IMG/VR virus record: IMGVR_UViG_2711768053_000019
Length of the DNA: 55,142 nt
Source of the DNA: a virus
Taxonomy: Duplodnaviria; Heunggongvirae; Uroviricota; Caudoviricetes
Reading direction: 5' to 3' (one strand)
This document shows, in pieces, positions 19,262-37,350 of the stretch. The position numbers and the translations under genes were made by a program. Below the pieces are notes generated by a model. That model did not search any database, was not told the DNA's origin, and saw only the letters and a list, made by a program, of their open reading frames with translations. Each line of letters begins with the position of its first letter. The stretch's first letter is position 1.

Positions 19262-19330
19262 GCGGGTCCTTTCCGGCGATCCGACAGGTTACGGGGCGGC
19301 GACCTCGCGGGTTTTCGCTATTTATGAAAA
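19262..19330 (+). other. cos: Prophage cos site (cosN 12-nt cohesive end GGGCGGCGACCT at 19294-19305, with adjacent cosQ/cosB)
   Basis: ...CGACAGGTTACG|GGGCGGCGACCTCGCGGGTTTTCGCTATTTATGAAAATTTTCCGG matches recalled lambda right-end/left-end junction; lies just upstream of Nu1. Confidence 0.9.
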
Positions 19331-20028: not shown

Positions 20029-23009
<2,981 letters not shown>

Positions 23010-23086
23010 AACCCTTGCTGCGTCTGGAATGTCGTTTTCCATGCTTTTGATGACCGTTCATCACCCTTCCAGTTTTTCGCGGTTTT

Positions 23087-23140
23087 GTGTATTGCAATGT
23101 GTATTGCAAATTGGCGATCGGGATGGGTGTGTATTGCAAA
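23087..23140 (+). repeat. Three direct copies of TGTGTATTGCAA near element left end (candidate integrase arm-type sites)
   Basis: Copies at 23087-23098, 23098-23110, 23127-23140; two further copies near right end at 33754-33776. Confidence 0.4.
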
Positions 23141-23157
23141 TCTCTTGAGGGCTTTTA

Positions 23158-24399
23158 ATGGCTATTGAAAACAAACTCAGTGACAAACTGTTAAAGAGTC
23201 TTGTCGGAAAACGGCAGGACAAACAAAAAACAATAGCGGATGGGCGCGGGTTGTCTGTGCGTGTAAGCATGGTTGGGGGGATCAGCTTTGTTTTTTACTA
23301 TCGTCTTGGTGGCAGGGAATCCCCTCCGGTATGGCTTACACTTGGTCGCTATCCTGACATGTCTCTTGCAACGGCCAGGCGCATGCGTGATCAGTGCCGT
23401 GAATGGCTGGCTGAAAATCTGGACCCCCGCAGGCAAATAAAACTTGCTGCCGAAAAAACTATGCAACCAGTGACCGTAAGGGATGCGCTGTTTTACTGGT
23501 ACGACAATCACGCCACAACAGCCAGAAAAGAGCATGAATATTTAATAAAACGATTTGAAAAGCATATCTTCCCCTATATCGGTGATATGGCTATAGAACA
23601 GTGCAAATTACACACATGGCTTACCGTCTTTGACAGGATCAAAAAAAATGCGCCTGTTATGTCTGGTGCAATTTTTCTTGATATCAAACAGGCGTTGCGT
23701 TTTTGTCGCGTCAGGCAATACATCGCGTGCGATCCCTTTGGAGATATTAACGTAAGTTATGTCGGGCGCTCATCCGGTATAAGGGATCGCGTTCTTAATA
23801 TCAATGAAACCGCTGATGTATGGTCTTATGCTTACGGTAATAATTTGCTAACTCTGTCATCAATATATAACCGAAGAATAATGGTTATCTGCCTGGTGTT
23901 TGGTTGCCGACAGCAGGAGGCGAGGCTATCCACCTGGGACGAATGGGATTTAAAAAACTGGGTATGGACAGTCCCAAAAGAGCACAGCAAAAACAAGGAG
24001 GCTATAGTAAGGCCTGTTCCTGACGGAATAAAACAATGGATCGTTAATCTTTACGCAGAAACAAAAAATCGCGGTTATGTTGTCGGTTGTGCTTTGCAAA
24101 GGGCGACAATAACAGGGGCTGCAAACAGAATATGCAGGCGTCTTGGTCATGATACTAATGGCTTGTGGTGCATACATGATTTCAGGCGCACATTTTCCAC
24201 TACGCTTAATGATATGGGGGCGGATCCTTATATTGTCGAACTTCTTTTAGGTCATAAAGTGAAAGGGGTTGCTGGTGTTTACAATAAAAGCAGGCATATA
24301 AAGAAAAAACTTGAGGTGCTTAATATGTGGGTTAATTACCTTAATACGATAGCAGGATTTAACAACAACGTTATCGAGCTTAATAAAGAGGTGGTGTGA
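23158..24399 (+). CDS. int: Tyrosine integrase of the inserted element (413 aa)
   Basis: C-terminal HDFRRTFSTTL...LLGH...VYNKSR (R-H-R-Y-type catalytic pattern); N-terminal arm-binding-like domain. Confidence 0.85.
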   Translation: MAIENKLSDKLLKSLVGKRQDKQKTIADGRGLSVRVSMVGGISFVFYYRLGGRESPPVWLTLGRYPDMSLATARRMRDQCREWLAENLDPRRQIKLAAEKTMQPVTVRDALFYWYDNHATTARKEHEYLIKRFEKHIFPYIGDMAIEQCKLHTWLTVFDRIKKNAPVMSGAIFLDIKQALRFCRVRQYIACDPFGDINVSYVGRSSGIRDRVLNINETADVWSYAYGNNLLTLSSIYNRRIMVICLVFGCRQQEARLSTWDEWDLKNWVWTVPKEHSKNKEAIVRPVPDGIKQWIVNLYAETKNRGYVVGCALQRATITGAANRICRRLGHDTNGLWCIHDFRRTFSTTLNDMGADPYIVELLLGHKVKGVAGVYNKSRHIKKKLEVLNMWVNYLNTIAGFNNNVIELNKEVV

Positions 24400-24400
24400 T

Positions 24401-24658
24401 ATGGCAATTTATTCTCTTGTTGATGAAAACGATTTGCGCACAATGAAGGACATTGATCGGTTCATTCGTGAAAAAGAGTGCATAGCACTTACCACGCTGG
24501 CAAACTCAACACGCTGGAAAATGGAGCAGGCAGGTAAATTCCCGCGACGTATCAAGATCGGTGAACGTGCTGCAGGGTATCGACTTTCAGAGGTTCAGGC
24601 ATGGATCCGTGGTGAGTGGCATCCTGGATGGAAACCTGGAAAAACAAAACAGCAATAA
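24401..24658 (+). CDS. alpA: AlpA-family transcriptional regulator / excisionase-like (85 aa)
   Basis: HTH LTTLANSTRWKMEQAGKFPRRIKIGERAAGYRLSEVQAWI; directly follows int in same orientation. Confidence 0.7.
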   Translation: MAIYSLVDENDLRTMKDIDRFIREKECIALTTLANSTRWKMEQAGKFPRRIKIGERAAGYRLSEVQAWIRGEWHPGWKPGKTKQQ

Positions 24659-24671
24659 CCAGTAAATAATG

Positions 24672-24694
24672 CCCCTCATCACGAGGGGTTTTTT
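24672..24694 (+). terminator. Intrinsic terminator after alpA
   Basis: CCCCTC-ATCAC-GAGGGG followed by TTTTTTGTC. Confidence 0.55.
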
Positions 24695-24714
24695 GTCTAT
24701 AAGGTAAAAACGCG

Positions 24715-25293
24715 ATGAATAAAAATATTGCCGTGACGGGCAAGGGGTACGCTCGTCCAGTGAAAAAATTCTGCGATATTCGTGATCTCGTCGTTCTGCG
24801 CTTTGATAGTGTGAACGTTCGTGTGGTGTATCTGAACGGCGATCCGTGGTTTGTTGCAAAAGATGTTTGTGCTGCGCTGGAACTAACCAATTCGCGTACG
24901 GCGTTGCAGATGCTTGATGATGATGAAAAGGGAGTAAATTTAACTTACACCCCAGGAGGAAATCAGAATATGAGAATTATCTCTGAGTCAGGTTTCTACA
25001 AACTAATAGCCCGCAGCCGCAAAGCAACGACGCCTGGCACATTTGCTCATCGTTTCAGTAACTGGGTATTCAGAAATGTGATACCAGGTATCAGAAAAAC
25101 GGGGACTTATGGTATCCCGTGGGGTGCATTACAGGATTTTTCCCGCCGTAAAGAGCAATATCAAATAAGTGCCAGCGAGAAGGGGAGGGAGCTACAGGCA
25201 TGTAAGCGCAAAAAGCGTGAGCTGGAGGAAGAAGAAAAAACGCTGATACGTGAATATCAGCCTGAGTTTTACTTTGGTAACCGCATTCAGTGA
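24715..25293 (+). CDS. Bro-N domain protein (antirepressor-like), 192 aa
   Basis: FVAKDVCAALELTNSRTALQMLDDDEKG pattern typical of Bro-N domains. Confidence 0.6.
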   Translation: MNKNIAVTGKGYARPVKKFCDIRDLVVLRFDSVNVRVVYLNGDPWFVAKDVCAALELTNSRTALQMLDDDEKGVNLTYTPGGNQNMRIISESGFYKLIARSRKATTPGTFAHRFSNWVFRNVIPGIRKTGTYGIPWGALQDFSRRKEQYQISASEKGRELQACKRKKRELEEEEKTLIREYQPEFYFGNRIQ

Positions 25294-25323
25294 CAAAACA
25301 AAGGCGACCGCAAAAGGGTCGCC
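25294..25323 (-). terminator. Terminator for minus-strand regulatory operon of the element
   Basis: GGCGACC-GCAAAAG-GGTCGCC hairpin followed on minus strand by TTTGTTTTGT. Confidence 0.45.
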
Positions 25324-25389
25324 AGTGGGAACAAGGGAAAACAAAAGCATCACCAACAATGCCACATTTGCGGCTGGTGGGCAATGTGA

Positions 25390-25569
25390 TCAGTCAGATT
25401 TGGTTCGTTCCAAGGTTTGCAACGAGAGCTTTTTCCTGTGCTCTTTAAGGAATTTCTCAAGAGCAAACGAACAAGGTGCGAATCTTTCTGATTCATGTTC
25501 ATGCGCTATATTTTTGCGTCGTCTCTTACGAGTTGGTGATGGTGTTTTGGTTGATTCTGTGTCGCTCAT
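25390..25569 (-). CDS. Small basic protein (59 aa) downstream of RHH gene
   Basis: Hand-translated MSDTESTKTPSPTRKRRRKNIAHEHESERFAPCSFALEKFLKEHRKKLSLQTLERTKSD; AGGACA SD; below ORF-track cut-off. Confidence 0.35.
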   Translation of the reverse strand: MSDTESTKTPSPTRKRRRKNIAHEHESERFAPCSFALEKFLKEHRKKLSLQTLERTKSD

Positions 25570-25626
25570 GGTGCTGTCCTGTAAAGCAATGCGCCTGCGT
25601 TCCTCAAACTATGGCGCTGATATTGG

Positions 25627-25932
25627 CTATTCATGCTCTTTGACCTTGCGTCGCTGGAGTTCTTCACGCGCGACGGTGACGAGTTGCCCGATCTCCTCGG
25701 CTGCTTTGATGCCGATTTGTTCGACCTTAGCCAGGGCATCCAGTGACGACACAAGGGGATTTTCTCCGCTGCCTTCTGCTTGGCGGCGGGCTATTTCTCC
25801 GCGCATGGCGGTTACGATAAATCCGGCATTGCTTTCACCGTCCAGCTTAACGGATTCCATCCCTTGCATAACATCTAGTGGGACTCTGACAGTTGTCAGT
25901 TGTGATTTTGCGTTTTTGTTAGCCGTTGCCAT
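25627..25932 (-). CDS. Putative ribbon-helix-helix repressor of the element (101 aa)
   Basis: TTVRVPLDVMQGMESVKLDGESNAGFIVTAMRGEI fits RHH beta-strand/helix pattern; divergent from replication/packaging operon. Confidence 0.45.
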   Translation of the reverse strand: MATANKNAKSQLTTVRVPLDVMQGMESVKLDGESNAGFIVTAMRGEIARRQAEGSGENPLVSSLDALAKVEQIGIKAAEEIGQLVTVAREELQRRKVKEHE

Positions 25933-25993
25933 TTCTGAAACTCCTAATCATCGGTGTGTTTCAGTATACACAAAAAAAGAAATACAAAAAGCC

Positions 25994-26031
25994 TTGACGT
26001 GTGTTTCATGCGCTCATAACATGAAACACAC
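25994..26031 (+). promoter_or_regulatory. Promoter/operator of element rightward operon: TTGACG -35 with 12-bp perfect inverted repeat
   Basis: GTGTGTTTCATG-cgctcataa-CATGAAACACAC (25999-26031) overlapping TTGACG (25994-25999) and TAACAT-like -10. Confidence 0.45.
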
Positions 26032-26122
26032 CGAAAGGATTGTTGAAATACAAAGAGCAACGCCCCGCAGTGCTGGGAACACATACGGGGCGTCTAACCA
26101 ACAACGTAAACTAGGAGCCGTT

Positions 26123-26320
26123 ATGGTTGCTGTAAATCATATACCACACCTTGTACACACACAAACGGCCTTTGTGTGGCGTTTTCTGGCACTGAGTGCC
26201 GGAGAATCTCAAATCATCCACGTAACCGCCTGGACGGAACGCGAAGCGCGTAGCCGTTGCCCGTCCGGTTGTGTTGCTGTATTCGCTGCAAAAATCCGCC
26301 AGGGAGTGAGTCATGCTTAA
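26123..26320 (+). CDS. Small protein (65 aa), first gene of element rightward operon
   Basis: AGGAG SD 5 nt before ATG; stop overlaps next start (ATGCTTAA). Confidence 0.45.
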   Translation: MVAVNHIPHLVHTQTAFVWRFLALSAGESQIIHVTAWTEREARSRCPSGCVAVFAAKIRQGVSHA

Positions 26321-26498
26321 AACCTTCCGTGTATTTGCCCGAGCTGTTAACCCAATAGGCCACACAATTGGTATCGCTCAGAATGTGAAGGCTGTTAATG
26401 TTCAGACGGCTATTGCTGCGGTGAGAAGCGAATCATCAGAATATGGCTTATCACAAGTCATTATTTCAGCAGTGTATGAATTAAAAGAGGTGCATTAA
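26313..26498 (+). CDS. Small hypothetical protein (61 aa)
   Basis: Translationally coupled string of small ORFs. Confidence 0.4.
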   Translation: MLKTFRVFARAVNPIGHTIGIAQNVKAVNVQTAIAAVRSESSEYGLSQVIISAVYELKEVH

Positions 26499-26689
26499 TG
26501 CAGGAAATTACATTACACGAAGCCGCTGAACGTGCGCACCAGACAGAAATTATTTGCCGCCTTCTTGAGGTATACCCGAACAAAATTACAGATGCTGATA
26601 TATCCGCACTGGCGAGCCTACTGGCGCGTCTTTCGGGAAGTGTCGCTAGTTTTTTGATTGAGGAAGAAAGTAAGCTGGTGGGGGATTAA
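26498..26689 (+). CDS. Small hypothetical protein (63 aa)
   Basis: Coupled start/stop overlap. Confidence 0.4.
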   Translation: MQEITLHEAAERAHQTEIICRLLEVYPNKITDADISALASLLARLSGSVASFLIEEESKLVGD

Positions 26690-26911
26690 ATGAATACAGA
26701 ACGGGAAGTCTTTTTTAAATTGTTAGCATGTGCAGAAAGTTCATTAACTTTAAATAATTCAGCAAAAGCAATATTAAATATGTGGCTTGATTGCATAAAT
26801 GACAATGAAGATGCAAATATTGCTTATGGCCTGTTGTCACTTATTGATGAATCAGCAGAAAAACTCAATGACGCAATAAATAGTGCCCTGCTATCAAATA
26901 AGTCGAGTTAA
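26690..26911 (+). CDS. Small hypothetical protein (73 aa)
   Basis: ATG immediately after previous stop; AT-rich. Confidence 0.4.
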   Translation: MNTEREVFFKLLACAESSLTLNNSAKAILNMWLDCINDNEDANIAYGLLSLIDESAEKLNDAINSALLSNKSS

Positions 26912-26928
26912 GTCGAGGAATAAATAAT

Positions 26929-27228
26929 ATGGAAATGAAAAATTCTGGCTTTATTGCCAGCGGCCCCGCTCGAACTGAATTTATGAACGGCGATATTTAC
27001 CGCGATAAATACGGCGGCACGGTAACGATTAAAGGCGTGGCAGAACGGCGCATCACTTACCGCCGTGAGGGGTATAGCTATGACTGCGTGATGCCTGTTT
27101 ATCAGTTCCGGCGTGATTTTTCCCTGGTATATGCCGCACCCCGCAGTAAGCCCATCAGCAGGGAAAAAGCGTGGGGAAATATCCAGAAAATGAAAACCAT
27201 GATTAACGGATTCAGAGGTAAAAAATGA
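26929..27228 (+). CDS. Hypothetical protein (99 aa)
   Basis: ATGA overlap with primase gene start. Confidence 0.45.
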   Translation: MEMKNSGFIASGPARTEFMNGDIYRDKYGGTVTIKGVAERRITYRREGYSYDCVMPVYQFRRDFSLVYAAPRSKPISREKAWGNIQKMKTMINGFRGKK

Positions 27229-28979
27229 AACTGGCACCGAACGTAAAACAGCAGTCACGCGGCATAAAACACAAAGGAACAGAAGTCATTATTTTTGCGG
27301 GTAGTGATGCCTGGGCACACGCGAAACAATGGCAGGAACATGATGCGCGTATGGCCGGAGATAATGAGCCTCCTGTGTGGCTTGGGGAGCAGCAGCTATC
27401 CGAACTGGATAATCTGCAAATTGTGCCGGAAGGCCGAAAATCAGCACGCATATACAGGGCCGGATATCTTGCGCCTGTAATGATAAAGGCGATTGGTCAG
27501 AAGCTGGCGGCAGCAGGCGTACAGGATGCAAATTTTTATCCTGAGGGTATGCACGGCCAGGAGGTGCAGAACTGGCGCGAATATCTGGCCCGTGAACGCC
27601 AGAATCTTTCTGATGGTCTGGTCATTGAGCTTCCGGTAAAGCAAAAGGCGCAACTTTCGCAGATGGCGGACAGTGAGCGCGCGCAGTTGCTTGCCGATCG
27701 CTTTGATGGCGTTTGCGTACATCCTGAAAGTGAAATCGTTCACGTATGGCGCGGCGGGGTATGGTGTCCGGTCAGCACAATGGAACTTAGCCGCGAAATG
27801 GTGGCGATCTATTCAGAGCACAGGGCCACTTTCAGCAAGCGCGTAATCAATAACGCCGTGGAAGCGTTAAAAGTTATTGCCGAACCAATGGGCGAGCCGT
27901 CTGGCGATTTGCTGCCGTTCGCCAATGGTGCGCTTGACCTGAAAACGGGGGAATTTTCCCCGCACACGCCGGAGGACTGGATCACCACGCACAACGGCAT
28001 TGAGTACACGCCACCAGCACCAGGGGAGAACATCCGCGATAACGCGCCAAACTTTCATAAATGGCTTGAGCACGCAGCCGGAAAAGACCCGCGCAAGATG
28101 ATGCGTATATGTGCCGCGCTGTACATGATTATGGCGAACCGGTACGACTGGCAGATGTTTATTGAGGCCACCGGAGACGGCGGGAGCGGTAAAAGTACAT
28201 TCACACACATAGCCAGCCTTCTGGCAGGGAAACAGAACACGGTAAGCGCTGAAATGACATCGCTTGATGATGCTGGTGGACGTGCGCAGGTTGTCGGGAG
28301 TCGTCTTATCGTCCTGGCTGACCAGCCGAAATATACAGGCGAAGGAACGGGCATCAAGAAAATCACAGGCGGCGACCCCGTGGAAATTAACCCGAAATAT
28401 GAAAAGCGTTTCACGGCGGTAATCAGGGCGGTGGTGCTGGCGACCAACAACAACCCGATGATATTCACCGAACGGGCCGGAGGTGTGGCACGTCGTCGCG
28501 TGATTTTCCGTTTCGACAATATCGTCAGTGAGGCCGAAAAAGACAGGGAGCTACCGGAAAAGATTGCGGCTGAAATCCCCGTTATTATCCGCCGATTGCT
28601 GGCGAACTTTACCGACCCTGAGAAGGCACGGGCTTTACTACTGGAACAGCGTGACGGTGATGAAGCACTGGCAATAAAGCAACAGACGGATCCGGTTATT
28701 GAGTTTTGCCAGTTCCTGAATTTTCTGGAGGAAGCGCGCGGCCTGATGATGGGTGGCGGTGGTGATTCAGTGAAGTACACGACCAGGAACAGCCTTTACC
28801 GCGTCTATCTGGCGTTTATGGCATACGCGGGCAGGAGCAAACCGCTAAACGTGGCTGAGTTCAGCAAGGCCATGAAGCCAGCGGCGAAAGTTTACGGGCA
28901 TGAATATATTACGCGAAAAGTTAAGGGAGTAACGCAGACCAACGCAATTACAACAGACGATTGCGACGCGTTTTTATAA
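27225..28979 (+). CDS. Primase-helicase (P4 alpha / D5-like, P-loop NTPase), 584 aa
   Basis: Walker A GDGGSGKST, Walker B-like LIVLAD; size and position typical of satellite Pri-Rep. Confidence 0.8.
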   Translation: MKLAPNVKQQSRGIKHKGTEVIIFAGSDAWAHAKQWQEHDARMAGDNEPPVWLGEQQLSELDNLQIVPEGRKSARIYRAGYLAPVMIKAIGQKLAAAGVQDANFYPEGMHGQEVQNWREYLARERQNLSDGLVIELPVKQKAQLSQMADSERAQLLADRFDGVCVHPESEIVHVWRGGVWCPVSTMELSREMVAIYSEHRATFSKRVINNAVEALKVIAEPMGEPSGDLLPFANGALDLKTGEFSPHTPEDWITTHNGIEYTPPAPGENIRDNAPNFHKWLEHAAGKDPRKMMRICAALYMIMANRYDWQMFIEATGDGGSGKSTFTHIASLLAGKQNTVSAEMTSLDDAGGRAQVVGSRLIVLADQPKYTGEGTGIKKITGGDPVEINPKYEKRFTAVIRAVVLATNNNPMIFTERAGGVARRRVIFRFDNIVSEAEKDRELPEKIAAEIPVIIRRLLANFTDPEKARALLLEQRDGDEALAIKQQTDPVIEFCQFLNFLEEARGLMMGGGGDSVKYTTRNSLYRVYLAFMAYAGRSKPLNVAEFSKAMKPAAKVYGHEYITRKVKGVTQTNAITTDDCDAFL

Positions 28980-28992
28980 TTTTTTGTAAAAG

Positions 28993-29216
28993 CCATCTAC
29001 CCCATCTATCTGAACAAAATAAACTCATATTATTCAACATGATAAGTGGGTATAGGGCTAGGTAGAAGGCTAATAAAAGCTCTCTACCTCTTCTACCTGA
29101 TTTTATCAGTTTCAGGTAGCAGGGTAGACGGCAGGTAGAGGAGTCAAAAAGTTATCTACCCGCTGAAAGCCGCGCCATTACTGACATGATGAGCATTCGG
29201 GTAGATGGGTAGAGGG
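28993..29216 (+). repeat. Element replication-origin candidate: at least nine GGTAG(A)/CTACC iterons
   Basis: GGTAGAAGG, CTCTACC, TCTACCTG, CAGGTAGCAGGGTAGACGGCAGGTAGAGG, TCTACCC, GGGTAGATGGGTAGAGG immediately downstream of primase-helicase. Confidence 0.5.
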
Positions 29217-29263
29217 GGGGAGGCACAACTAAAAACTTTTTAAACGAGGGGGGGTGAAAATAA

Positions 29264-29578
29264 ATGCGCATACATAAAAATCACTTAACAAACATGCCAG
29301 CCGAAAACATGAATCAGGGGCGACAAATGACCAAAATTCGCAGAGACAGAACACAGGCAAAATATAAAGCGTTAGACATGACAGAGCTTTCCTTAAAGGT
29401 GGCAATCAAAGCGATAGACCACCACACACGGGCAGGATACGCGAAGGAACATCCCGACCTGATAAGCGCATTCATGACCACAGCAGCGGCAAACTTTGCC
29501 ACGCTGACAGAACGGGAGATTGCCGAAGCGGAACAGGTGACAACCATCAATGTTAAAACCGGAGAGCAGACAGCATGA
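29264..29578 (+). CDS. Hypothetical protein (104 aa)
   Basis: G-rich SD upstream; coupled to next gene. Confidence 0.4.
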   Translation: MRIHKNHLTNMPAENMNQGRQMTKIRRDRTQAKYKALDMTELSLKVAIKAIDHHTRAGYAKEHPDLISAFMTTAAANFATLTEREIAEAEQVTTINVKTGEQTA

Positions 29579-29997
29579 CAGCACAGATAGCGGCTTACGG
29601 GCGGCTGGTGGCTGACCCGCAGTTAAAGACCACCAGCAAAGGGACACAAATGGCGATGGCGAGTATGGCGGTTCCCCTGCCGTGCAGCCAGGCAGATGAC
29701 GGAACGGCGACGATGTGGTTATCCGTCCTGGCGTTTGGCAGACAGGCCGACGCACTGGCAAAACACCACAAAGGCGAACTGGTGAGCGTGGCGGGTAACA
29801 TGCAGGTAAGCCAGTGGACAGGCCAGAACGGCGAAACGCGGCGGGGCTGGCAGGTTATCGCAGACAGCGTAATCAGTGCGCGAACGGCGCGACCGGGCGG
29901 CAAAAAAGGCCAGCAGGGGCAGGCCACTGACGCACTGAACAGGGCAAAACAACAGTCGGGGAATGATGATCCGTACGGCGATAATATACCGTTTTAA
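29575..29997 (+). CDS. SSB-like protein (140 aa)
   Basis: Acidic C-terminal tail ending DDPYGDNIPF as in SSB C-termini; OB-fold-like core. Confidence 0.55.
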   Translation: MTAQIAAYGRLVADPQLKTTSKGTQMAMASMAVPLPCSQADDGTATMWLSVLAFGRQADALAKHHKGELVSVAGNMQVSQWTGQNGETRRGWQVIADSVISARTARPGGKKGQQGQATDALNRAKQQSGNDDPYGDNIPF

Positions 29998-30208
29998 ATT
30001 CTACAAACAAAAAGATGCCGGAAAAAAATAGATTTTCCGGCATGCTACATAAATCCCGACCAAAGGAAGTAAATACATTAACACGAATTATCAGCACTGA
30101 AGTTGTTACGGCATATTTTATACAACATTGCACTTGGTTGCATGTATTCGCATAGCAGACATCGGTAATAGAATATATTCATAATTATTTGTAATGAATG
30201 TAAAGAGG

Positions 30209-31255
30209 ATGAGTATGGTTGATTTATATTCGCCTACACAGCTTGTGCAGGTGGCTAATGCTGAAGATGTGCAAAAAAAATTAAATGCGTTGTTTACCAG
30301 TTTGTTTTTCACTCGCTCGGTAATGTTTGAATCGAGAGACATTATTCTTGATACGATCGACGATCCAAATATCCCGATCGCGGCGTTTTGCTCTCCTATG
30401 GTGGGCAGTAAAGTTTCACGAGATGAGGGATACGAATCAAAAACAATTCGTCCAGGTTATATGAAGCCGAAAAGCAGCATTGATCCAAATAAGTTAGCTG
30501 TGCGCCCTGCTGGTGTGTCACCTGAGCAATACAATGCTTTTGGGGCGCGTAATATTAAAGTTAAACAGGCGATTGTAAATCAGGCTAAAGCTATTCGTGC
30601 ACGTATTGAATGGCTTGCTGTTCAGGCAATCACAACGGGGAAAAATATCATTGAGGGCGATGGTATTGAACGTTATGAGCTGGACTGGAATATAAAACCA
30701 CAAAATATCATCACTCAGTCTGGCGGTACTGAGTGGTCAGGTAAGGATAAAGAAACTTTTGATCCAAATGATGATATTGAGAGCTACGCAGAATTTAGTG
30801 AGGGCGTCACTAATATCATCATTATGGGTGGTAATGTATGGAAGAAATACCGTTCATTCAGAGCGATAAAAGAGGCTTTGGATACCCGTCGTGGTTCTAA
30901 TTCCGAACTGGAAACGGCCCTTAAAGACCTTGGTGATTCGGTGAGTTTTAAAGGGTATATGGGCGATGTTGCGATTGTTGTTTACAGCGGGCGTTATACC
31001 GACGAGGACGGAACAGAAAAACATTTCCTTGATCCTGATTTGATGGTGCTTGGCAATACGGCTCTTCAGGGGATTGTCGCCTATGGCGGTATTCAGGATC
31101 CGGAGCTAATCCGAATGGGGCTGACTAAAGCCGAACTTGCACCGAAAAACTATATTGTGCCTGGTGATCCGGCTATTGAATATGTGCAGACACATTCAGC
31201 ACCACAGCCAATACCGGCCCGCATCAATCGTTTTGTTACCGTTCGCATTGGCTAA
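30209..31255 (+). CDS. Major capsid protein paralogue (lambda E-like, divergent), about 349 aa
   Basis: Shares blocks with prophage E (36325-37350): ITQSGGTEWS, DTRRGSNSELETA, DVAIVVYSG; start 30209 or 30215. Confidence 0.75.
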   Translation: MSMVDLYSPTQLVQVANAEDVQKKLNALFTSLFFTRSVMFESRDIILDTIDDPNIPIAAFCSPMVGSKVSRDEGYESKTIRPGYMKPKSSIDPNKLAVRPAGVSPEQYNAFGARNIKVKQAIVNQAKAIRARIEWLAVQAITTGKNIIEGDGIERYELDWNIKPQNIITQSGGTEWSGKDKETFDPNDDIESYAEFSEGVTNIIIMGGNVWKKYRSFRAIKEALDTRRGSNSELETALKDLGDSVSFKGYMGDVAIVVYSGRYTDEDGTEKHFLDPDLMVLGNTALQGIVAYGGIQDPELIRMGLTKAELAPKNYIVPGDPAIEYVQTHSAPQPIPARINRFVTVRIG

Positions 31256-31264
31256 GGGGGAGCA

Positions 31265-31606
31265 ATGGCTACTCATTACACTGAACTCATGGCTGGCACT
31301 GAAGCACTGGTGACTACGCTGGGGATATTTTCAGCTAATAAAGGGGTAATTCCTGCATTTACGCCACTGATGCAGGAAGATGCAACAGGTGCACTGGTGG
31401 TATGGGATGGTTCGAGCGTAGGTAAAGCGGTTTATGTTTCCGCTGTACAAATCGACACAGCGAAAAAAACACAGGCACAGGTTTATAAGACAGGTGTTTT
31501 AAATGTTGATGCTCTGAACTGGCCTGAGTCTGTAAAAGAACTGTCGGCAAAGGTTGCCGCGTTTGTTGGCTCAGGTATTTCTGTTCAGCCGCTGGCTCGT
31601 GTGTAA
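31265..31606 (+). CDS. Head decoration protein paralogue (lambda D-like, divergent), 113 aa
   Basis: Same length and position as D after E; VVWDGSS..., YKTGVL pattern parallels prophage D ([10 protein letters not shown]..., YKSGTF). Confidence 0.6.
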   Translation: MATHYTELMAGTEALVTTLGIFSANKGVIPAFTPLMQEDATGALVVWDGSSVGKAVYVSAVQIDTAKKTQAQVYKTGVLNVDALNWPESVKELSAKVAAFVGSGISVQPLARV

Positions 31607-31617
31607 AGGGGGATACA

Positions 31618-32001
31618 ATGCAGAATCATTACAATGACCTTAAGCCAATTGCCGAAATGATGTATCCGGATCCAGCAGTAGAGGAATTAAAGGCTATTGC
31701 TGACAAAATGCGTTTAAGTGAACGCCTTGTTGATATGAATCAGGTGATGGAACTTACTACCCTTAGCCGTCGCACATTGCTAAACCTTGAGGCTCGCGGA
31801 GAGTTCCCCGAACGCGTACAGGTTACGGAAGGGCGTAAGGCCTGGTATTTAAGTGAAGTGATCGACTGGATAAACAATATTCCTCGATCTTCTGAATATT
31901 GCCGCGTACCTGTCCCAAAAAAGCCAGATGCGGCGCTATGCCTCAAGATTGAGCGTGTACGTCGCAATGCACGGGATGGTCGCTATAAGTTGATTGGTTG
32001 A
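31618..32001 (+). CDS. AlpA/MerR-like HTH protein adjacent to element cos (127 aa)
   Basis: LTTLSRRTLLNLEARGEFPERVQVTEGRKAWYLSEVIDWI HTH; ends 25 bp before cos-like site. Confidence 0.55.
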   Translation: MQNHYNDLKPIAEMMYPDPAVEELKAIADKMRLSERLVDMNQVMELTTLSRRTLLNLEARGEFPERVQVTEGRKAWYLSEVIDWINNIPRSSEYCRVPVPKKPDAALCLKIERVRRNARDGRYKLIG

Positions 32002-32025
32002 TGAAATTAGGGCCCGTTCTGGCTG

Positions 32026-32091
32026 GCGGGTCCTTTCCGGCGATCCGGTAGGCTACGGGGCGGCGACCTCGCGGGTTTTCGCTATTTATGA
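32026..32091 (+). other. cos: Second cos site belonging to the element (cosN GGGCGGCGACCT at 32058-32069)
   Basis: 21 bp (32026-32046) and 34 bp (32058-32091) identical to prophage cos 19262-19282 and 19294-19327; flanking sequence on both sides differs. Confidence 0.8.
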
Positions 32092-32202
32092 GCCTTTTTC
32101 GGGTGCTGGTGGTGGTTTTGTTGTTCGCTCTATCTCTATGAATAAAAAGGAAAAGATAAAGCCAATATACCAACCTGAAACATTACTTAAGTGGGGATAT
32201 TG

Positions 32203-32745
32203 ATGAAATCGCACCTGATGAACAAAAAAAACATGGCGCAAAGCTGCCGTGTAAGTGCGACAGCGTTCGACAAGTGGGGAGTGACTCCCGTTGAACGTAA
32301 AGGCCGCGAGGCGTTTTATGATGTTGCCAGCGTAATAGACAATCGGGTTAGCAATGCAATTAACCAGATTACAGACGACAAAGGCGAGATTGATGATGAT
32401 GAACTCCTACGAGTCAGGATCAGATTGCTGACAGCACAGGCAGAGGCGCAGGAGCTTAAAAACGAGCGCGAACGCGGCGACGTTATTGATACAGCGTTTT
32501 GTATATACGTGCTTTCAAAATTGGCGAGTCAGATTTCTTCAATCATGGACAGCCTGCCGCTTGCCATGACAAGGAAGTTTCCCGACATGAAGCCGTCTAT
32601 GCTGGATGGACTGAAAAAAGAAGTTATCAGAGCCTGTAACGCATGCGCAAAACTTGACGAAAACATACCGCTGATGCTGTCCGATTATCTGATGGAAACT
32701 GCCGGAAACGTACCGGATAAGTTGCAGCCGAATAAAGATAAGTAA
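32203..32745 (+). CDS. Terminase small subunit paralogue (Nu1-like, divergent), about 180 aa
   Basis: Alignable with prophage Nu1: AQAEAQELKNERERGDVIDTAFCIYVLSKLASQISSIMDSLPLAMTRKFP versus AQADAQELKNARDSAEVVETAFCTFVLSRIAGEIASILDGLPLSVQRRFP; directly downstream of element cos. Confidence 0.75.
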   Translation: MKSHLMNKKNMAQSCRVSATAFDKWGVTPVERKGREAFYDVASVIDNRVSNAINQITDDKGEIDDDELLRVRIRLLTAQAEAQELKNERERGDVIDTAFCIYVLSKLASQISSIMDSLPLAMTRKFPDMKPSMLDGLKKEVIRACNACAKLDENIPLMLSDYLMETAGNVPDKLQPNKDK

Positions 32746-32756
32746 CGTAGTACGCT

Positions 32757-33038
32757 ATGACTGAATCCGAAATACTGCGATTAATCCGCCGTGCTTGTGG
32801 AATCAGCAAGCAGCATGACGAACAGGCCACGCAGCCGGACAGCGTGACCGCAGATAATTATGTGCGTGTAGTGGCTGAGGTGATGCGCCGTGACGGTATT
32901 GAGCTTAACGGCGTGGATATGCGCAACATACGAACAAGAGTCCTTGAGTTGCTGGCATATCGTCGCCGTTCTCAACAACGGAGGGAGAGCGCGAAAAATA
33001 CTTACCAGTGGAAGAAGCCGGAACGATTGCGGCGGTAA
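32757..33038 (+). CDS. Hypothetical protein (93 aa)
   Basis: Last ORF of element before noncoding repeat region. Confidence 0.4.
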   Translation: MTESEILRLIRRACGISKQHDEQATQPDSVTADNYVRVVAEVMRRDGIELNGVDMRNIRTRVLELLAYRRRSQQRRESAKNTYQWKKPERLRR

Positions 33039-33055
33039 CTTGCTGATATTCCCGA

Positions 33056-33440
33056 TAACGCAAAATTGCGCTGGCTGACTTGTTGCATTGCAAAAAGTTA
33101 AGCAGGAAGGCACGGCCTGTAAGATGGGATGCAGTAAGTAGTTCAAGGCTACCTTGTGCTGGCACGCACAGTTAAGCCGTCGGTGCTGGATATCCCCCAC
33201 TGGGGGAAAAGCTGGCTACATCCCTCACATCTGAGGACTGATAACGCGACATTGCGCTGGCTGGCAAAGTGCAAAATTGCACGATGGCCTAACCCATTGA
33301 TTATTTCGAAAACCTGCAATGCAGGAAATCGGGGAAGTAAGCCTAAGCTATTAATTGTTTCGAAAACCCCCATTGGGGGATGTCGGGAAAGTAAGACTAA
33401 CCCATTGATTCTTCCACAATCCTCAATTTGAGGAGGCCGG
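33056..33440 (+). repeat. Noncoding cluster of direct repeats and short palindromes at element right end
   Basis: Three units at 54-bp period each with a 13-bp palindrome (CCTGCAATGCAGG 33313-33325, CCCCCATTGGGGG 33367-33379, CCTCAATTTGAGG 33421-33433); ATAACGC.A.ATTGCGCTGGCTG duplicated at 33056 and 33241. Confidence 0.5.
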
Positions 33441-33853
33441 AACGTCTACATAGCTGCATCGCCGTAATGATGATTCAGCCCACCAGCCAAATCAGCACAG
33501 CAACGACAGAATAGCCCGACACAGAAAAACCACGAATATGGGGTTTTTGTTATGACATGGTCATGATGACCACTCATACAAAACAGGTAAAGCCCACCAG
33601 CCTGATTAAAGGTTAACCGGAAAAAAGCCAGGTATCCAATCTCGATATGGGGATCCCTATATCGACATTAACGCCCACTAAAACTGTGCATATATGCATA
33701 GAAAAAGCATCCACCAGCTTTATGACGGATGCCGCTCATCTTATAAATAATCGTGTATTGCAGTGTGTATTGCGACTCCTTTAAACGATAGGTCTGAGCA
33801 TTCGTAATGTACTGTTTTTAAATTTTATTTTTTCCTGTCTTTTCATAAAGGCG

Positions 33854-34627
33854 ATGTATGCCGCCACCATTGAGAGTGAGCTGGATACGCAGTCAGCGAT
33901 GGATTTTATTCTGGGCGCGAACAGTCAGGAGCAGCGGGAAAGGCTGACCGGCTGGATTGGTGAAATTGCCGCGTATTACGCCGCAGCGCCGGTCCGGCTG
34001 GGAGGCGCAAAAGTACCGCACCTGATGCCGGGTGACTCACTGAACCTGCAGACGGCTCAGGATACGGATAACGGCTACTCCGTGTTTGAGCAGTCACTGC
34101 TGCGGTATATCGCTGCCGGGCTGGGTGTCTCGTATGAGCAGCTTTCCCGGAATTACGCCCAGATGAGCTACTCCACGGCACGGGCCAGTGCGAACGAGTC
34201 GTGGGCGTACTTTATGGGGCGGCGAAAATTCGTCGCATCCCGTCAGGCGAGCCAGATGTTTCTGTGCTGGCTGGAAGAGGCCATCGTTCGCCGCGTGGTG
34301 ACGTTACCTTCAAAAGCGCGCTTCAGTTTTCAGGAAGCCCGCAGTGCCTGGGGGAACTGCGACTGGATAGGCTCCGGTCGTATGGCCATCGATGGTCTGA
34401 AAGAAGTTCAGGAAGCGGTGATGCTGATAGAAGCCGGACTGAGTACCTACGAGAAAGAGTGCGCAAAACGCGGTGACGACTATCAGGAAATTTTTGTCCA
34501 GCAGGTCCGTGAAACGATGGAGCGCCGTGCAGCCGGTCTTAAACCGCCCGCCTGGGCGGCTGCAGCATTTGAATCCGGGCTGCGACAATCAACAGAGGAG
34601 GAGAAGAGTGACAGCAGAGCTGCGTAA
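33854..34627 (+). pseudogene. B: Portal protein B, 3' portion (257 codons), resumes exactly at ...YAATIESELD
   Basis: MYAATIESELDTQSAMDFILGANSQEQRERLTGWIGEIAAYY... continues lambda B to its C-terminus by recall; in frame with 5' portion if element excised. Confidence 0.85.
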
Positions 34628-35927
34628 TCTCCCGCATATTGCCAGCATGGCCTTTAATGAGCCGCTGATGCTTGAACCCGCCTATGCGCGGGTTTTCTTT
34701 TGTGCGCTTGCAGGCCAGCTTGGGATCAGCCGCCTGACGGATGCGGTGTCCGGCGACAGCCTGACTGCCCAGGAGGCACTCGCGACGCTGGCATTATCCG
34801 GTGATGATGACGGACCACGACAGGCCCGCAGTTATCAGGTCATGAACGGCATCGCCGTGCTGCCGGTGTCCGGCACGCTGGTCAGCCGGACGCGGGCGCT
34901 GCAGCCGTACTCGGGGATGACCGGTTACAACGGCATTATCGCCCGTCTGCAACAGGCTGCCAGCGATCCGATGGTGGACGGCATTCTGCTCGATATGGAC
35001 ACGCCCGGCGGGATGGTGGCGGGGGCATTTGACTGCGCTGACATCATCGCCCGTGTGCGTGACATAAAACCGGTATGGGCGCTTGCCAACGACATGAACT
35101 GCAGTGCAGGTCAGTTGCTTGCCAGTGCCGCCTCCCGGCGTCTGGTCACGCAGACCGCCCGGACAGGCTCCATCGGCGTCATGATGGCTCACAGTAATTA
35201 CGGTGCTGCGCTGGAGAAACAGGGTGTGGAAATCACGCTGATTTACAGCGGCAGCCATAAGGTGGATGGCAACCCCTACAGCCATCTTCCGGATGACGTC
35301 CGGGAGACACTGCAGTCCCGGATGGACGCAACCCGCCGGATGTTTGCGCAGAAGGTGTCGGCATATACCGGCCTGTCCGTGCAGGCTGTGCTGGATACCG
35401 AGGCTGCAGTGTACAGCGGTCAGGAGGCCATTGATGCCGGACTGGCTGATGAACTTGTTAACAGCACCGATGCGATCACCGTCATGCGTGATGCACTGGA
35501 TGCACGTAAATCCCGTCTCTCAGGAGGGCGAATGACCAAAGAGACTCAATCAACAACTGTTTCAGCCACTGCTTCGCAGGCTGACGTTACTGACGTGGTG
35601 CCAGCGACGGAGGGCGAGAACGCCAGCGCGGCGCAGCCGGACGTGAACGCGCAGATCACCGCAGCGGTTGCGGCAGAAAACAGCCGCATTATGGGGATCC
35701 TCAACTGTGAGGAGGCTCACGGACGCGAAGAACAGGCACGCGTGCTGGCAGAAACCCCCGGTATGACCGTGAAAACGGCCCGCCGCATTCTGGCCGCAGC
35801 ACCACAGAGTGCACAGGCGCGCAGTGACACTGCGCTGGATCGTCTGATGCAGGGGGCACCGGCACCGCTGGCTGCAGGTAACCCGGCATCTGATGCCGTT
35901 AACGATTTGCTGAACACACCAGTGTAA
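34608..35927 (+). CDS. C: Head protease/scaffold protein C, 439 aa, GTG start
   Basis: VTAELRNLPHIASMAFNEPLMLEPAYARVFF... lambda C by recall; overlaps B 3' end. Confidence 0.9.
   Translation: MTAELRNLPHIASMAFNEPLMLEPAYARVFFCALAGQLGISRLTDAVSGDSLTAQEALATLALSGDDDGPRQARSYQVMNGIAVLPVSGTLVSRTRALQPYSGMTGYNGIIARLQQAASDPMVDGILLDMDTPGGMVAGAFDCADIIARVRDIKPVWALANDMNCSAGQLLASAASRRLVTQTARTGSIGVMMAHSNYGAALEKQGVEITLIYSGSHKVDGNPYSHLPDDVRETLQSRMDATRRMFAQKVSAYTGLSVQAVLDTEAAVYSGQEAIDAGLADELVNSTDAITVMRDALDARKSRLSGGRMTKETQSTTVSATASQADVTDVVPATEGENASAAQPDVNAQITAAVAAENSRIMGILNCEEAHGREEQARVLAETPGMTVKTARRILAAAPQSAQARSDTALDRLMQGAPAPLAAGNPASDAVNDLLNTPV
35532..35927 (+). CDS. Nu3: Scaffold protein Nu3 (in-frame internal start within C)
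   Basis: Internal ATG giving MTKETQSTTVSATASQADVTDVV...; nested-gene arrangement known for lambda C/Nu3. Confidence 0.7.
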   Translation: MTKETQSTTVSATASQADVTDVVPATEGENASAAQPDVNAQITAAVAAENSRIMGILNCEEAHGREEQARVLAETPGMTVKTARRILAAAPQSAQARSDTALDRLMQGAPAPLAAGNPASDAVNDLLNTPV

Positions 35928-35936
35928 GGGATGTTT

Positions 35937-36269
35937 ATGACGAGCAAAGAAACCTTTACCCATTACCAGCCGCAGGGCAACAGTGACCCGGCTCATACCG
36001 CAACCGCGCCCGGCGGATTGAGTGCGAAAGCGCCTGCAATGACCCCGCTGATGCTGGACACCTCCAGCCGTAAGCTGGTTGCGTGGGATGGCACCACCGA
36101 CGGTGCTGCCGTTGGCATTCTTGCGGTTGCTGCTGACCAGACCAGCACCACGCTGACGTTCTACAAGTCCGGCACGTTCCGTTATGAGGATGTGCTCTGG
36201 CCGGAGGCTGCCAGCGACGAGACGAAAAAACGGACCGCGTTTGCCGGAACGGCAATCAGCATCGTTTAA
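35937..36269 (+). CDS. D: Head decoration protein D, 110 aa
   Basis: [52 protein letters not shown]... lambda D by recall. Confidence 0.9.
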
Positions 36270-36324
36270 CTTTACCCTTCATCACTAAAGGCCGCCTGTG
36301 CGGCTTTTTTTACGGGATTTTTTT

Positions 36325-37350
36325 ATGTCGATGTACACAACCGCCCAACTGCTGGCGGCAAATGAGCAGAAATTTAAGTTTGATCCGCTGTTTCTGCGTC
36401 TCTTTTTCCGTGAGAGCTATCCCTTCACCACGGAGAAAGTCTATCTCTCACAAATTCCGGGACTGGTAAACATGGCGCTGTACGTTTCGCCGATTGTTTC
36501 CGGTGAGGTTATCCGTTCCCGTGGCGGCTCCACCTCTGAATTTACGCCGGGATATGTCAAGCCGAAGCATGAAGTGAATCCGCAGATGACCCTGCGTCGC
36601 CTGCCGGATGAAGATCCGCAGAATCTGGCGGACCCGGCTTACCGCCGCCGTCGCATCATCATGCAGAACATGCGTGACGAAGAGCTGGCTATTGCTCAGG
36701 TCGAAGAGATGCAGGCAGTTTCTGCCGTGCTTAAGGGCAAATACACCATGACCGGTGAAGCCTTCGATCCGGTTGAGGTGGATATGGGCCGCAGTGAGGA
36801 GAATAACATCACGCAGTCCGGCGGCACGGAGTGGAGCAAGCGTGACAAGTCCACGTATGACCCGACCGACGATATCGAAGCCTACGCGCTGAACGCCAGC
36901 GGTGTGGTGAATATCATCGTGTTCGATCCGAAAGGCTGGGCGCTGTTCCGTTCCTTCAAAGCCGTCAAGGAGAAGCTGGATACCCGTCGTGGCTCTAATT
37001 CCGAGCTGGAGACAGCGGTGAAAGACCTGGGTAAAGCGGTGTCCTATAAGGGGATGTATGGCGATGTGGCCATCGTCGTGTATTCCGGACAGTACGTGGA
37101 AAACGGCGTCAAAAAGAACTTCCTGCCGGACAACACGATGGTGCTGGGGAACACTCAGGCACGCGGTCTGCGCACCTATGGCTGCATTCAGGATGCGGAC
37201 GCACAGCGCGAAGGCATTAACGCCTCTGCCCGTTACCCGAAAAACTGGGTGACCACCGGCGATCCGGCGCGTGAGTTCACCATGATTCAGTCAGCACCGC
37301 TGATGCTGCTGGCTGACCCTGATGAGTTCGTGTCCGTACAACTGGCGTAA
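36325..37350 (+). CDS. E: Major capsid protein E, 341 aa
   Basis: MSMYTTAQLLAANEQKFKFDPLFLRLFFRESYPFTTEKVYLSQIPGLVNMALY... lambda E by recall. Confidence 0.95.
   Translation: MSMYTTAQLLAANEQKFKFDPLFLRLFFRESYPFTTEKVYLSQIPGLVNMALYVSPIVSGEVIRSRGGSTSEFTPGYVKPKHEVNPQMTLRRLPDEDPQNLADPAYRRRRIIMQNMRDEELAIAQVEEMQAVSAVLKGKYTMTGEAFDPVEVDMGRSEENNITQSGGTEWSKRDKSTYDPTDDIEAYALNASGVVNIIVFDPKGWALFRSFKAVKEKLDTRRGSNSELETAVKDLGKAVSYKGMYGDVAIVVYSGQYVENGVKKNFLPDNTMVLGNTQARGLRTYGCIQDADAQREGINASARYPKNWVTTGDPAREFTMIQSAPLMLLADPDEFVSVQLA

Follow-up and report, generated by a model that had tools for sequence, protein, structure and literature searches.

A probable helper-embedded PICI in the portal gene of a lambda-like prophage encodes divergent paralogues of capsid protein E, decoration protein D and the small terminase Nu1

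Results

The window, that is, the whole stretch of DNA analysed (55,142 nucleotides; IMG/VR virus record IMGVR_UViG_2711768053_000019), contains an element of 10,898 bp that splits the portal gene B of a helper prophage at codon 275 and is co-oriented with it (features given below lie on the + strand unless stated otherwise). Its boundaries are two att cores at 22950 and 33848, of the form AAGGCGAT(T/G)TATG: the 5' part of gene B (22128..22962) ends in the attL core AAGGCGATTTATG (22950-22962), and the attR core AAGGCGATGTATG (33848-33860) opens the segment that holds the 3' part of gene B (33848..34627). Joining the flanks restores an uninterrupted 533-aa portal ORF, with a Phage_portal_2 match of 2.9e-97, and the two halves flanking the element are the sole portal sequence in the region. 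The core begins with AAGGCGAT, like the att block catalogued for helper-embedded phage-inducible chromosomal islands (PICIs; hence HE-PICIs), and matches the 'aaggcgat' of the published site group; in the supplementary table of PMC10111431, the 11-kb HE-PICIs are named B_Phage_portal_2_241 and carry the identity block 'aaggcgat'. The hallmark of HE-PICIs, a doubled motif tgTGTATTGCantgTGTATTGCa on either side of the attP centre, about 81 bp before it and about 132 bp after it (PMC10111431), is also found here, the doubled TGTATTGC motif occupying +132 and -81 bp relative to the att centre, in agreement with the published distances. On the left, the doubled motif TGTGTATTGCAATGTGTATTGCA, accompanied by a third copy (23086..23141) and forming a putative arm site for the integrase, begins at 23088, 132 bp after the att centre 22956; the second copy of the doubled motif (33752..33777), upstream of the right att centre, ends at 33773, 81 bp before the centre 33854. 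In the annotated twin of the locus, the surrounding prophage is complete and the portal is entered as two pseudogene halves; the RefSeq view of the locus consists of two portal pseudogenes and scattered 'major capsid', 'head decoration' and 'terminase small subunit' genes.

A scan of the ORFs in the element against Pfam and PHROGs revealed the zone order of Gram-negative PICIs, namely int/AlpA, Bro, primase/SSB and late zones. A tyrosine integrase (23158..24399; Arm-DNA-bind_3 and Phage_integrase), which in pairwise comparisons shares 88% identity with its counterpart in an Edwardsiella HE-PICI inserted at this portal site and 54% with that of a capsid-E-site HE-PICI, values consistent with the HE-PICI integrase clade, is followed by an AlpA protein of the excisionase/activator family (24401..24658; Pfam), a Bro-N domain protein constituting the 'Bro zone' (24715..25293), a 101-aa YlcI/YnfO-family protein encoded on the opposite strand (25627..25932, - strand), four small ORFs (26313..27228), one of them for a DUF4222 protein (26929-27228), and a P4-family primase/helicase (27225..28979; D5_N, DUF5906 and Pox_D5). 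The replication zone ends (29264..29997) with a small conserved protein (29264-29578) and an SSB (29575-29997). In the late zone, the paralogues of E (30209..31255) and D (31265..31606) precede a second AlpA-family HTH protein of 127 aa (31618..32001), conserved in related late zones, a cos site, the small terminase TerS (32203..32745) and a conserved 93-aa protein (32757..33038) with 76% identity to the product of the gene after rppA in EcCICFT073. The non-coding right end (33040..33750, no strand assigned) has many short hairpins and includes three tandem 54-nt units (33287-33448).

Neither a large terminase nor a portal or protease was recognized among the element ORFs by Pfam and PHROGs, which bears out their absence as claimed in an earlier note written from the sequence alone, and no tail or lysis genes were found in these scans, which covered all ORFs but one small Icd-like ORF. 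This last ORF (about 26123-26320) is too small for a large terminase, portal or protease. PADLOC returned no defence-system match for any unassigned ORF, E or TerS, and NCBIfam no model naming E, D, TerS, the second AlpA or the 93-aa protein. Searching Rfam over the whole element gave no match at E<=0.1, nor did it find P4-type CI/seqA immunity RNAs, which some PICIs are reported to have; a match to STnc310 in the non-coding right end (E=4.6) is at chance level.

The E paralogue matches Phage_cap_E with an E value of 2.9e-41 over positions 4-327 of the 329-position profile and is 42% identical over its full length to the E protein of the resident prophage (2e-87, BLASTP), with the blocks ITQSGGTEWS, DTRRGSNSELETA and DVAIVVYSG, which the earlier note had singled out as conserved, all present. 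The D paralogue (Pfam HDPD, 4.1e-15) is 38% identical to helper D (4e-17, BLASTP), the reference copies for both comparisons (35931..37350) being helper D (35931-36269) and helper E (36325-37350). With TerS likewise at 38% to helper Nu1, all three proteins align at full length and match the profiles of their families (Phage_cap_E, HDPD and Phage_Nu1), in accordance with their previous designation as divergent paralogues. The identity to EcCICFT073 proteins is 55% for E (c1499) and 54% for D (c1500), and the best solved relative of satellite E is PDB 3BQW, the crystal structure of the EcCICFT073-type E paralogue. One patch of satellite E is nearer to helper E than to other satellite E proteins.

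In a search of 50,697 phage records, the capsid protein came closest to lambda itself, at 42%, and the small terminase to N15 gp1, at 47.6%; neither satellite protein is near-identical to a gene product of an ordinary phage, an outcome in favour of the earlier note. Relatives of satellite E at >=52% identity are found in several genera of Enterobacterales, the next group of matches, which includes lambda-type capsid proteins, lies at <=46%, and all three of the genomic contexts checked (outside E. coli or at other sites) are satellites; judged from these comparisons, satellite E appears to be a distinct, satellite-specific capsid lineage. E, D and TerS are all under purifying selection, with no stop codons in the three genes and dN/dS well below 1 (0.03-0.06 for E among close relatives, 0.11-0.24 for D and 0.12-0.22 for TerS). 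Satellites having neither TerS nor Rpp (L002 and L008) likewise carry the E-D pair, which means that the three genes do not form an obligatory set.

TerS, a protein of 180 aa belonging to the Nu1/gp1 family, matches Pfam Phage_Nu1 (PF07471, 3.3e-24) and, over residues 1-176, PHROG 57 'terminase small subunit' (5e-51). It aligns along its whole length with helper Nu1 (38% identity, 2e-36, BLASTP) and N15 gp1; within residues 1-50 the identity is 59% with N15 gp1 as opposed to 38% with helper Nu1, and the C-terminal 42 residues have just 40% identity to helper Nu1. The features of a lambda-family small terminase are thus present (Nu1 profile, N-terminal winged-helix region, aligned TerL-binding end and adjacent cos), with cosN lying 134 bp upstream of the gene, and a PDB sequence search revealed no solved relative. 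TerS has no BLASTP similarity to RppA: the cos-adjacent gene here encodes a 180-aa Nu1-family protein, not the 135-154-aa Rpp protein that defines Rpp-type cos PICIs. Likewise, no similarity was found between the second AlpA and EcCICFT073 c1501, which occupies the equivalent position. The TerS/RppA and second AlpA/c1501 positions hold non-homologous cassettes, the genes flanking TerS and RppA being homologous between the element and EcCICFT073. A PICI at the EcCICFT073 site (L006) has TerS in the place of RppA, and by megablast the TerS-type cassette is found in 765 of 5,426 complete E. coli genomes, versus 97 with the RppA/B type.

The cosN of the helper prophage (GGGCGGCGACCT; 19294..19305) is followed by a lambda-type cosB and Nu1 (19483-20028). 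The satellite contains a 66-bp cos core (32026..32091) that is near-identical to the helper cosQ-cosN, with the exact cosN GGGCGGCGACCT at 32058-32069, and diverges thereafter. The putative satellite cosB (32100..32130) is short and, unlike the helper cosB, has none of the lambda R sites (R2/R1) nor I1. At bp 49-61, it shows CTGGTGGTGGTTT followed by TTGTTGTT, resembling the R3 site of N15, GAGGTTGTTGTTT (bp 48-60; PMC9026076); this run stands at the equivalent distance from cosN and agrees in 9 of 13 bases, in an ambiguous register (MAFFT preferred a 9-bp shift). The N-terminus of TerS and cosB are both conserved in four TerS-type satellites and both different in the Rpp-type EcCICFT073, so that the TerS type co-varies with the cosB sequence. 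Only one exact cosN is present in the element, a second cos site as in EcCICFT073 not being found; a cosN-like match with 2 mismatches inside the primase gene is at chance level.

At least 80% of the interval 22000-35000, comprising the element and the flanking helper, is present in 52 complete E. coli genomes, and the late zone alone in 264 genomes. The same module occurs intact elsewhere, namely inside gene E (capsid), in the interval separating cspD from clpS, and at the site of EcCICFT073 (roxA-phoQ).

Discussion

The element described here is almost certainly a HE-PICI of the site group B:Phage_portal_2:241, inserted in a complete lambda-like prophage. The earlier note had also arrived at a satellite, a call that stands, but the location of the element inside the helper portal gene was absent from that note, and the small-capsid mechanism it proposed finds no support in the closest tested relative, as discussed below. 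As the satellite type, the spare capsid and decoration genes and the insertion site have all been published previously, the finding is real but ordinary, and its main value lies in the correct annotation of the locus as a prophage-satellite composite, in which the portal gene is repaired once the satellite leaves.

Induction and excision of an HE-PICI have been published (PMC10111431), and by analogy with published relatives, induction would lead the prophage-satellite composite to excise and replicate, after which late transcription would read into the satellite, Int and AlpA would excise it with consequent repair of the portal gene, and the satellite concatemers would be packaged in helper-made virions. 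In the packaging step, TerS may bind the satellite's own cosB and recruit gpA, the large terminase of the helper, to the cosN that both share, and satellite DNA would therefore be chosen over helper DNA. TerS would do the job of RppA, but as a complete protein, retaining the C-terminal part through which TerS proteins of the lambda family bind TerL. We regard this packaging mechanism as reasonably probable, the TerS-gpA binding being read solely from the alignment; the TerS-type cassette predicts that satellite packaging is independent of the helper TerS. No experimental study of the TerS-type cassette or of a Nu1-type TerS in E. coli PICIs was found in the literature searchable here, and a full-length TerS, with a DNA-binding end that is N15-like and not helper-like, in the position of RppA in EcCICFT073 and beside a cos site of which cosQ/cosN, but not cosB, match the helper, may be counted as a modest addition to knowledge.

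With respect to E and D, we tentatively suggest that they serve as private shell and cement subunits, which may co-assemble with, or replace, helper E and D in helper-sized heads; four element copies amount to 43.6 kb, 0.90 of the lambda length. Deletion of c1499/c1500 in EcCICFT073 left both transfer and interference unchanged (PMC6092414), and this missing phenotype counts against a structural role for E and D. Beyond these 2018 deletions, nothing was found in the literature on the function of PICI E/D genes, and the strong purifying selection on the E-D pair across several Enterobacterales genera merits specialist attention, as does the commonness of the TerS-type cassette.

The same deletions, showing that E and D are not needed for EcCICFT073 transfer, favour the alternative that the two proteins have no virion role and act in interference or as decoys, either poisoning helper capsid assembly or shielding the pair of helper and satellite from host defences that recognize the helper capsid protein, with the satellite packaged wholly in helper heads. 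Interference functions are common in this zone of satellites (PMC6739421), and the helper-like patch in satellite E could aid mixed assembly. However, interference with lambda persisted after deletion of c1499 or c1500 (PMC6092414), PADLOC gave no match, and a full-length E with dN/dS of 0.03-0.06, paired with a cognate D, has the look of a functional shell protein; we therefore consider this alternative unlikely.

Still less likely is the idea of the earlier note that the E/D paralogues redirect assembly to, or build, small satellite-sized capsids with the helper portal, scaffold and protease, for which a T=3 shell would hold ~13.6 kb (one copy) and a T=4 shell ~21 kb (two copies). SaPIbov5 Ccm and PmCI172 are thought to make small capsids with helper parts. 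E and D are indeed full-length and strongly constrained and form a satellite-specific lineage in several genera, the element length fits the T=3 or T=4 arithmetic, and a Pasteurella PICI with a capsid homologue makes small heads (PMC6092414). Nevertheless, the closest tested relative, EcCICFT073, which has the same E-D pair (54-55% identity), lends no support: the DNA it packages is all phage-sized (PMC6092414), and the c1499 or c1500 deletion altered neither interference nor transfer, two results that disfavour small capsids. Moreover, four element copies fit the lambda head well, and no size-determining scaffold was found in the element.

To a similarly slight extent, one may imagine that the E-D pair together with a private, complete TerS/cos might let this PICI class use the portal, scaffold and protease of the helper to assemble a shell of its own, perhaps differing in size or stability, and fill it without the helper TerS. 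If so, the class would be intermediate between the classical PICIs, which steal everything, and the cf-PICIs, which steal only tails, and the missing EcCICFT073 phenotype would reflect laboratory helpers and redundancy. Finally, from its three genes of lambda-family Pfam families in the kept order E-D ... cos-Nu1, the locus might be taken for the degenerating remnant of a second lambdoid phage or for a scar of recombination. This reading is effectively refuted, in agreement with the earlier preference for an autonomous satellite, by the exact att cores with the restorable portal ORF, the element's own integrase, AlpA and primase within the int-alpA-Bro-primase-SSB series, the HE-PICI motif, the recurrence in 52 genomes and of the intact module at other sites, the purifying selection on genes free of stop codons (dN/dS well below 1), and the lack of close copies in any of the 50,697 phage records. 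Taken as a whole, and as a compromise across its parts, the explanation combining HE-PICI identity, TerS-directed packaging and a role for E and D is highly likely to be the best one.

The element is worth comparing with known systems, first of all with the HE-PICIs B:Phage_portal_2:241 (Tommasini, Mageeney and Williams, NAR Genom Bioinform 2023, PMC10111431), with which it shares the 11-kb size, the co-oriented insertion in a lambda-type portal gene, the 'aaggcgat' block, the doubled TGTATTGC motif at -81/+132 bp, and the Int/AlpA, Bro, replication and late zones, the last including a capsid gene, so that there is no difference in kind. The D and Nu1 paralogues are not discussed in the main text of that paper, where the HE-PICI type element 11capE, located in gene E, is stated to be without terS, whereas the present element interrupts gene B and encodes a small terminase of the Nu1 family. 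EcCICFT073, the model Gram-negative cos PICI (Fillol-Salom et al. 2018, PMC6092414; 2019, PMC6739421), has the late-zone order in common (capsid, decoration, small gene, cos, packaging-specificity gene, 93-aa gene), as well as a helper-like cosQ/cosN joined to a cosB unlike that of the helper. It is, however, chromosomal, next to phoQ, whereas the element here is inside a prophage; it has two cos sites instead of one, a different cosB sequence, and RppA (144 aa) in place of TerS (180 aa), without detectable similarity between them. According to PMC9026076, Rpp proteins lack the tail that binds TerL. N15 gp1/cosB-N15 and lambda Nu1 share with the satellite the Nu1-family profile and the gene position just downstream of cos; the N-terminal winged-helix region of N15 gp1 is 59% identical to that of satellite TerS, and the satellite resembles N15 in its short cosB without lambda R2/R1/I1 and in the R3-N15-like run at the same distance from cosN. 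Overall, satellite TerS is just 48% identical to N15 gp1 and 38% to lambda Nu1, from both of which it differs in a 13-residue C-terminal extension and in being encoded by a satellite without a large terminase. With P4, only the P4-family primase and the P4-like integrase/AlpA are common, the P4-like satellite genes Sid/Psu and delta/epsilon having no Pfam or PHROG matches in the element. The cf-PICIs (Alqurainy et al. 2023, preprint 10.1101/2022.09.08.507074) similarly possess their own HK97-fold major capsid gene, but they encode the head and the packaging machinery in full (capsid, portal, protease, connectors, TerS and TerL) and take only tails from the helper, whereas the element here has only E, D and TerS. 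Lastly, the TerS of the pac-type staphylococcal PICIs (SaPIs) belongs to an unrelated protein family and operates in headful pac packaging, in contrast to cos packaging here, yet it follows the logic proposed here, in which a small terminase encoded by the satellite pairs with the large terminase of the helper and turns packaging towards the satellite genome.

Results

The element interrupts a late operon of the lambda type (Nu1, A, W, B, C, D, E and further genes). It divides the portal gene B, whose 5′ part stops near 22960 and whose 3′ part restarts at 33854. Because the core AAGGCGAT(T/G)TATG, common to both junctions, is located at 22950 and 33848, the insert measures 10,898 bp, and the joined flanks restore an uninterrupted 533-aa ORF matching Phage_portal_2 (2.9e-97). 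The insert has the same orientation as the helper late operon. It opens with genes for a tyrosine integrase, AlpA and a Bro-N protein, after which come small ORFs (one of them for a DUF4222 protein), a P4-family primase and an SSB; further on are the paralogues of E and D, another AlpA-like protein, the cos site, the Nu1 paralogue and the gene for a 93-aa protein, before a right end of ~800 bp of non-coding DNA. In the annotated twin from E. coli APEC O2-211, a complete lambdoid prophage encloses the element, with the portal entered as two pseudogene fragments, and 52 of 5,426 complete E. coli genomes contain at least 80% of positions 22000–35000, which span the element and adjacent helper sequence. 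An in-frame ATG (M in ...KAMYAAT...) sits right at the attR core, at the head of the 3′ portal fragment (33854–34627), so that in the integrated state the C-terminal 257 aa of the portal form an open ORF; a 257-aa fragment is likewise left by the Edwardsiella portal-site element (L008).

Helper-embedded phage-inducible chromosomal islands (HE-PICIs) are satellites residing in, and co-oriented with, the late genes of lambdoid helper prophages (Tommasini, Mageeney and Williams 2023, PMC10111431). All of the sequence features given for them in that study are found in the element, in agreement with the satellite proposed in the earlier note. These include the four-zone organisation and the HE-PICI-specific doubled motif tgTGTATTGCantgTGTATTGCa, which occurs twice, one copy ending 81 bp upstream and the other starting 132 bp downstream of the att centre, exactly the published distances (PMC10111431). 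The supplementary table of the same paper lists 11-kb elements B_Phage_portal_2_241 with the identity block 'aaggcgat'. From these features, the site group and the identity block, it follows that the element is a member of an already catalogued HE-PICI group. Its integrase shares 88% identity with the enzyme of an Edwardsiella tarda element occupying this portal site and 54% with the integrase of an E-site HE-PICI, pairwise values that appear to fit the published site-specific subclades (PMC10111431).

The E, D and Nu1 paralogues first recognized by eye are present in the ORF list at 30209–31255, 31265–31606 and 32203–32745, and match the Pfam profiles Phage_cap_E (2.9e-41, nearly the whole profile), HDPD (4.1e-15) and Phage_Nu1 (3.3e-24), respectively, with the PHROGs labels major head protein, head decoration and terminase small subunit. 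Their supposed divergence from the resident prophage copies was borne out (42, 38 and 38% identity, respectively), the conserved blocks quoted for the E paralogue were recovered in the alignment with prophage E, and, as anticipated, the scanned element ORFs included no large terminase, portal or protease.

The Nu1 paralogue gene is preceded, at a distance of 134 bp, by an exact cosN, GGGCGGCGACCT (32058). Over a 66-bp block spanning cosQ and cosN, the sequence almost matches the helper cos, whereas the two diverge completely where lambda has cosB, and comparison with the helper cos revealed no lambda R sites in the putative satellite cosB region. The cosB of N15 is a single R3 at bp 48–60 (PMC9026076), reading GAGGTTGTTGTTT; the satellite reads CTGGTGGTGGTTT at bp 49–61, then TTGTTGTT. 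The Nu1 paralogue, namely the satellite small terminase (TerS), is a full-length Nu1/gp1 family member, whose nearest phage protein is N15 gp1 (47.6%). Its identities to N15 gp1 and helper Nu1 are 59 and 38% in the winged-helix DNA-binding region (residues 1–50), 54 and 56% in the central region (residues 72–125), and 40 and 40% in the C-terminal region (residues 126–167); lambda-family TerS binds TerL via its C-terminal region (PMC9026076). The TerS N-terminus hardly varies among four TerS-type satellites, which also have this cosB sequence in common; the cosB of the Rpp-type model island EcCICFT073 is different. TerS variation among satellites is concentrated in the C-terminal third.

No similarity was found between the satellite TerS and RppA, which holds the same position in EcCICFT073. 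One PICI at the EcCICFT073 chromosomal site (L006) carries EcCICFT073-type E and D, but TerS replaces RppA, which makes TerS and Rpp alternative cassettes. Megablast of complete E. coli genomes gave 765 of the TerS type and 97 of the RppA/B type, and the dN/dS of TerS is 0.12–0.22.

Several further observations concern the cos sites and the modular make-up of these satellites. The TerS-type cosB (32106–32118) contains GGTGGTGGT, and that of EcCICFT073 (L003:2606–2625) contains its reverse complement, CCACCACCAC, at a similar distance from cosN, which may be a coincidence or an inverted recognition element. The cosN of the E-site HE-PICI (L004:11460–11475) is GGGCGTCAGGCG, not the lambda-type GGGCGGCGACCT, with conserved flanks, suggesting that this satellite has adapted to a helper whose cohesive end is different. 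Modules are shuffled among L004, L005, L006 and the present element (23158–33038): the E gene is 99.7–100% identical in the portal-site element, the E-site HE-PICI (integrase 54%) and a chromosomal PICI between cspD and clpS, with TerS proteins just 77–85% identical, their variation again lying mainly in the presumed TerL-binding third.

In EcCICFT073, the capsid gene c1499 and the head decoration gene c1500 stand in the same late-zone order as in the element; the E (55%) and D (54%) identities are both higher than those to the helper copies, and the downstream 93-aa protein is 76% identical. Among solved structures, the E paralogue is closest to PDB 3BQW (1e-121), a 351-aa 'putative capsid protein of prophage' compatible in length and score with a c1499-type protein, with lambda gpE second. 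The wider protein search indicates a distinct lineage: relatives of at least 52% identity occur in Escherichia, Cedecea, Scandinavium, Serratia, Edwardsiella, Salmonella and Lelliottia, the next group, including lambda-type capsid proteins, reaches at most 46%, and none of 50,697 phage records contains a capsid protein more than 42% identical. All three contexts checked (Serratia fis-site PICI, Edwardsiella portal-site HE-PICI and E. coli E-site HE-PICI) are satellites with E adjoining D. The dN/dS values among close relatives (E, 0.03–0.06; D, 0.11–0.24) mark E and D as working genes, not debris. One patch of the E paralogue (30840–30975, codons ~211–255) is closer to helper/lambda E (70–77% amino-acid identity) than to EcCICFT073 E (43–57%), with third-codon-position identity of 0.53–0.57 versus ~0.3 in the flanks, suggesting an old gene conversion from a lambda-type capsid gene.

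The non-coding right end (33040–33750) is packed with short hairpins, comprising three tandem 54-nt units (33287–33448), each with a 5-bp stem of different sequence (CCTGCAATGCAGG, CCCCCATTGGGGG and CCTCAATTTGAGG), and a fourth hairpin, CCCCCACTGGGGG, near 33193; it also contains a 24-nt direct repeat (33054 and 33240). Its fold z-score is −3.4 on the + strand, no Rfam family was assigned to it, and short pieces of it recur, always unannotated, at the right ends of other PICIs in ~1,200 E. coli genomes. In the helper prophage, the late genes are preceded by two low-GC stretches (0.35–0.41; 10000–12000 and 14000–16000), one of which may correspond to the ompC-like porin gene that lies between the Q antiterminator and lysis genes in the annotated twin.

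Discussion

The element class, its insertion site group and the capsid and decoration genes in such islands have already been published, and it has also been stated that terS occurs in some Gram-negative PICIs. The Nu1 paralogue and its cos are the point where the element departs from the studied model EcCICFT073. In the searchable literature, no account was found of TerS taking the place of Rpp, of the N15-like specificity module or of the relative abundance of the TerS type, all of which are refinements within a known kind.

With modest confidence, we regard E and D as shell and cement subunits that the satellite supplies for itself and that enter helper-sized heads. Alternatively, both proteins may be non-structural, acting as a decoy or in interference. 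In EcCICFT073, deletion of c1499 or c1500 left lambda interference as well as island transfer unchanged (PMC6092414). The formation of small capsids, implied by the capsid remodelling suggested in the earlier note, is allowed by copy-number arithmetic, as are helper-sized heads (four element copies make 43.6 kb, 0.90 of the lambda length, and one copy would fill ~80% of a T=3 shell), but is unsupported, since these deletions, together with packaged DNA that was all phage-sized (PMC6092414), are direct evidence against it in the nearest tested relative.

When an HE-PICI was induced in published work, the composite excised and replicated before the satellite itself excised (PMC10111431); by analogy, the present element would follow the same course. 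For packaging, the satellite TerS is predicted to recognise the satellite cosB and, once bound there, would recruit helper gpA to the shared cosN. Such a step would serve the same purpose as Rpp, with TerS working without the helper TerS as an adaptor, and would parallel in logic the TerS of SaPIs.
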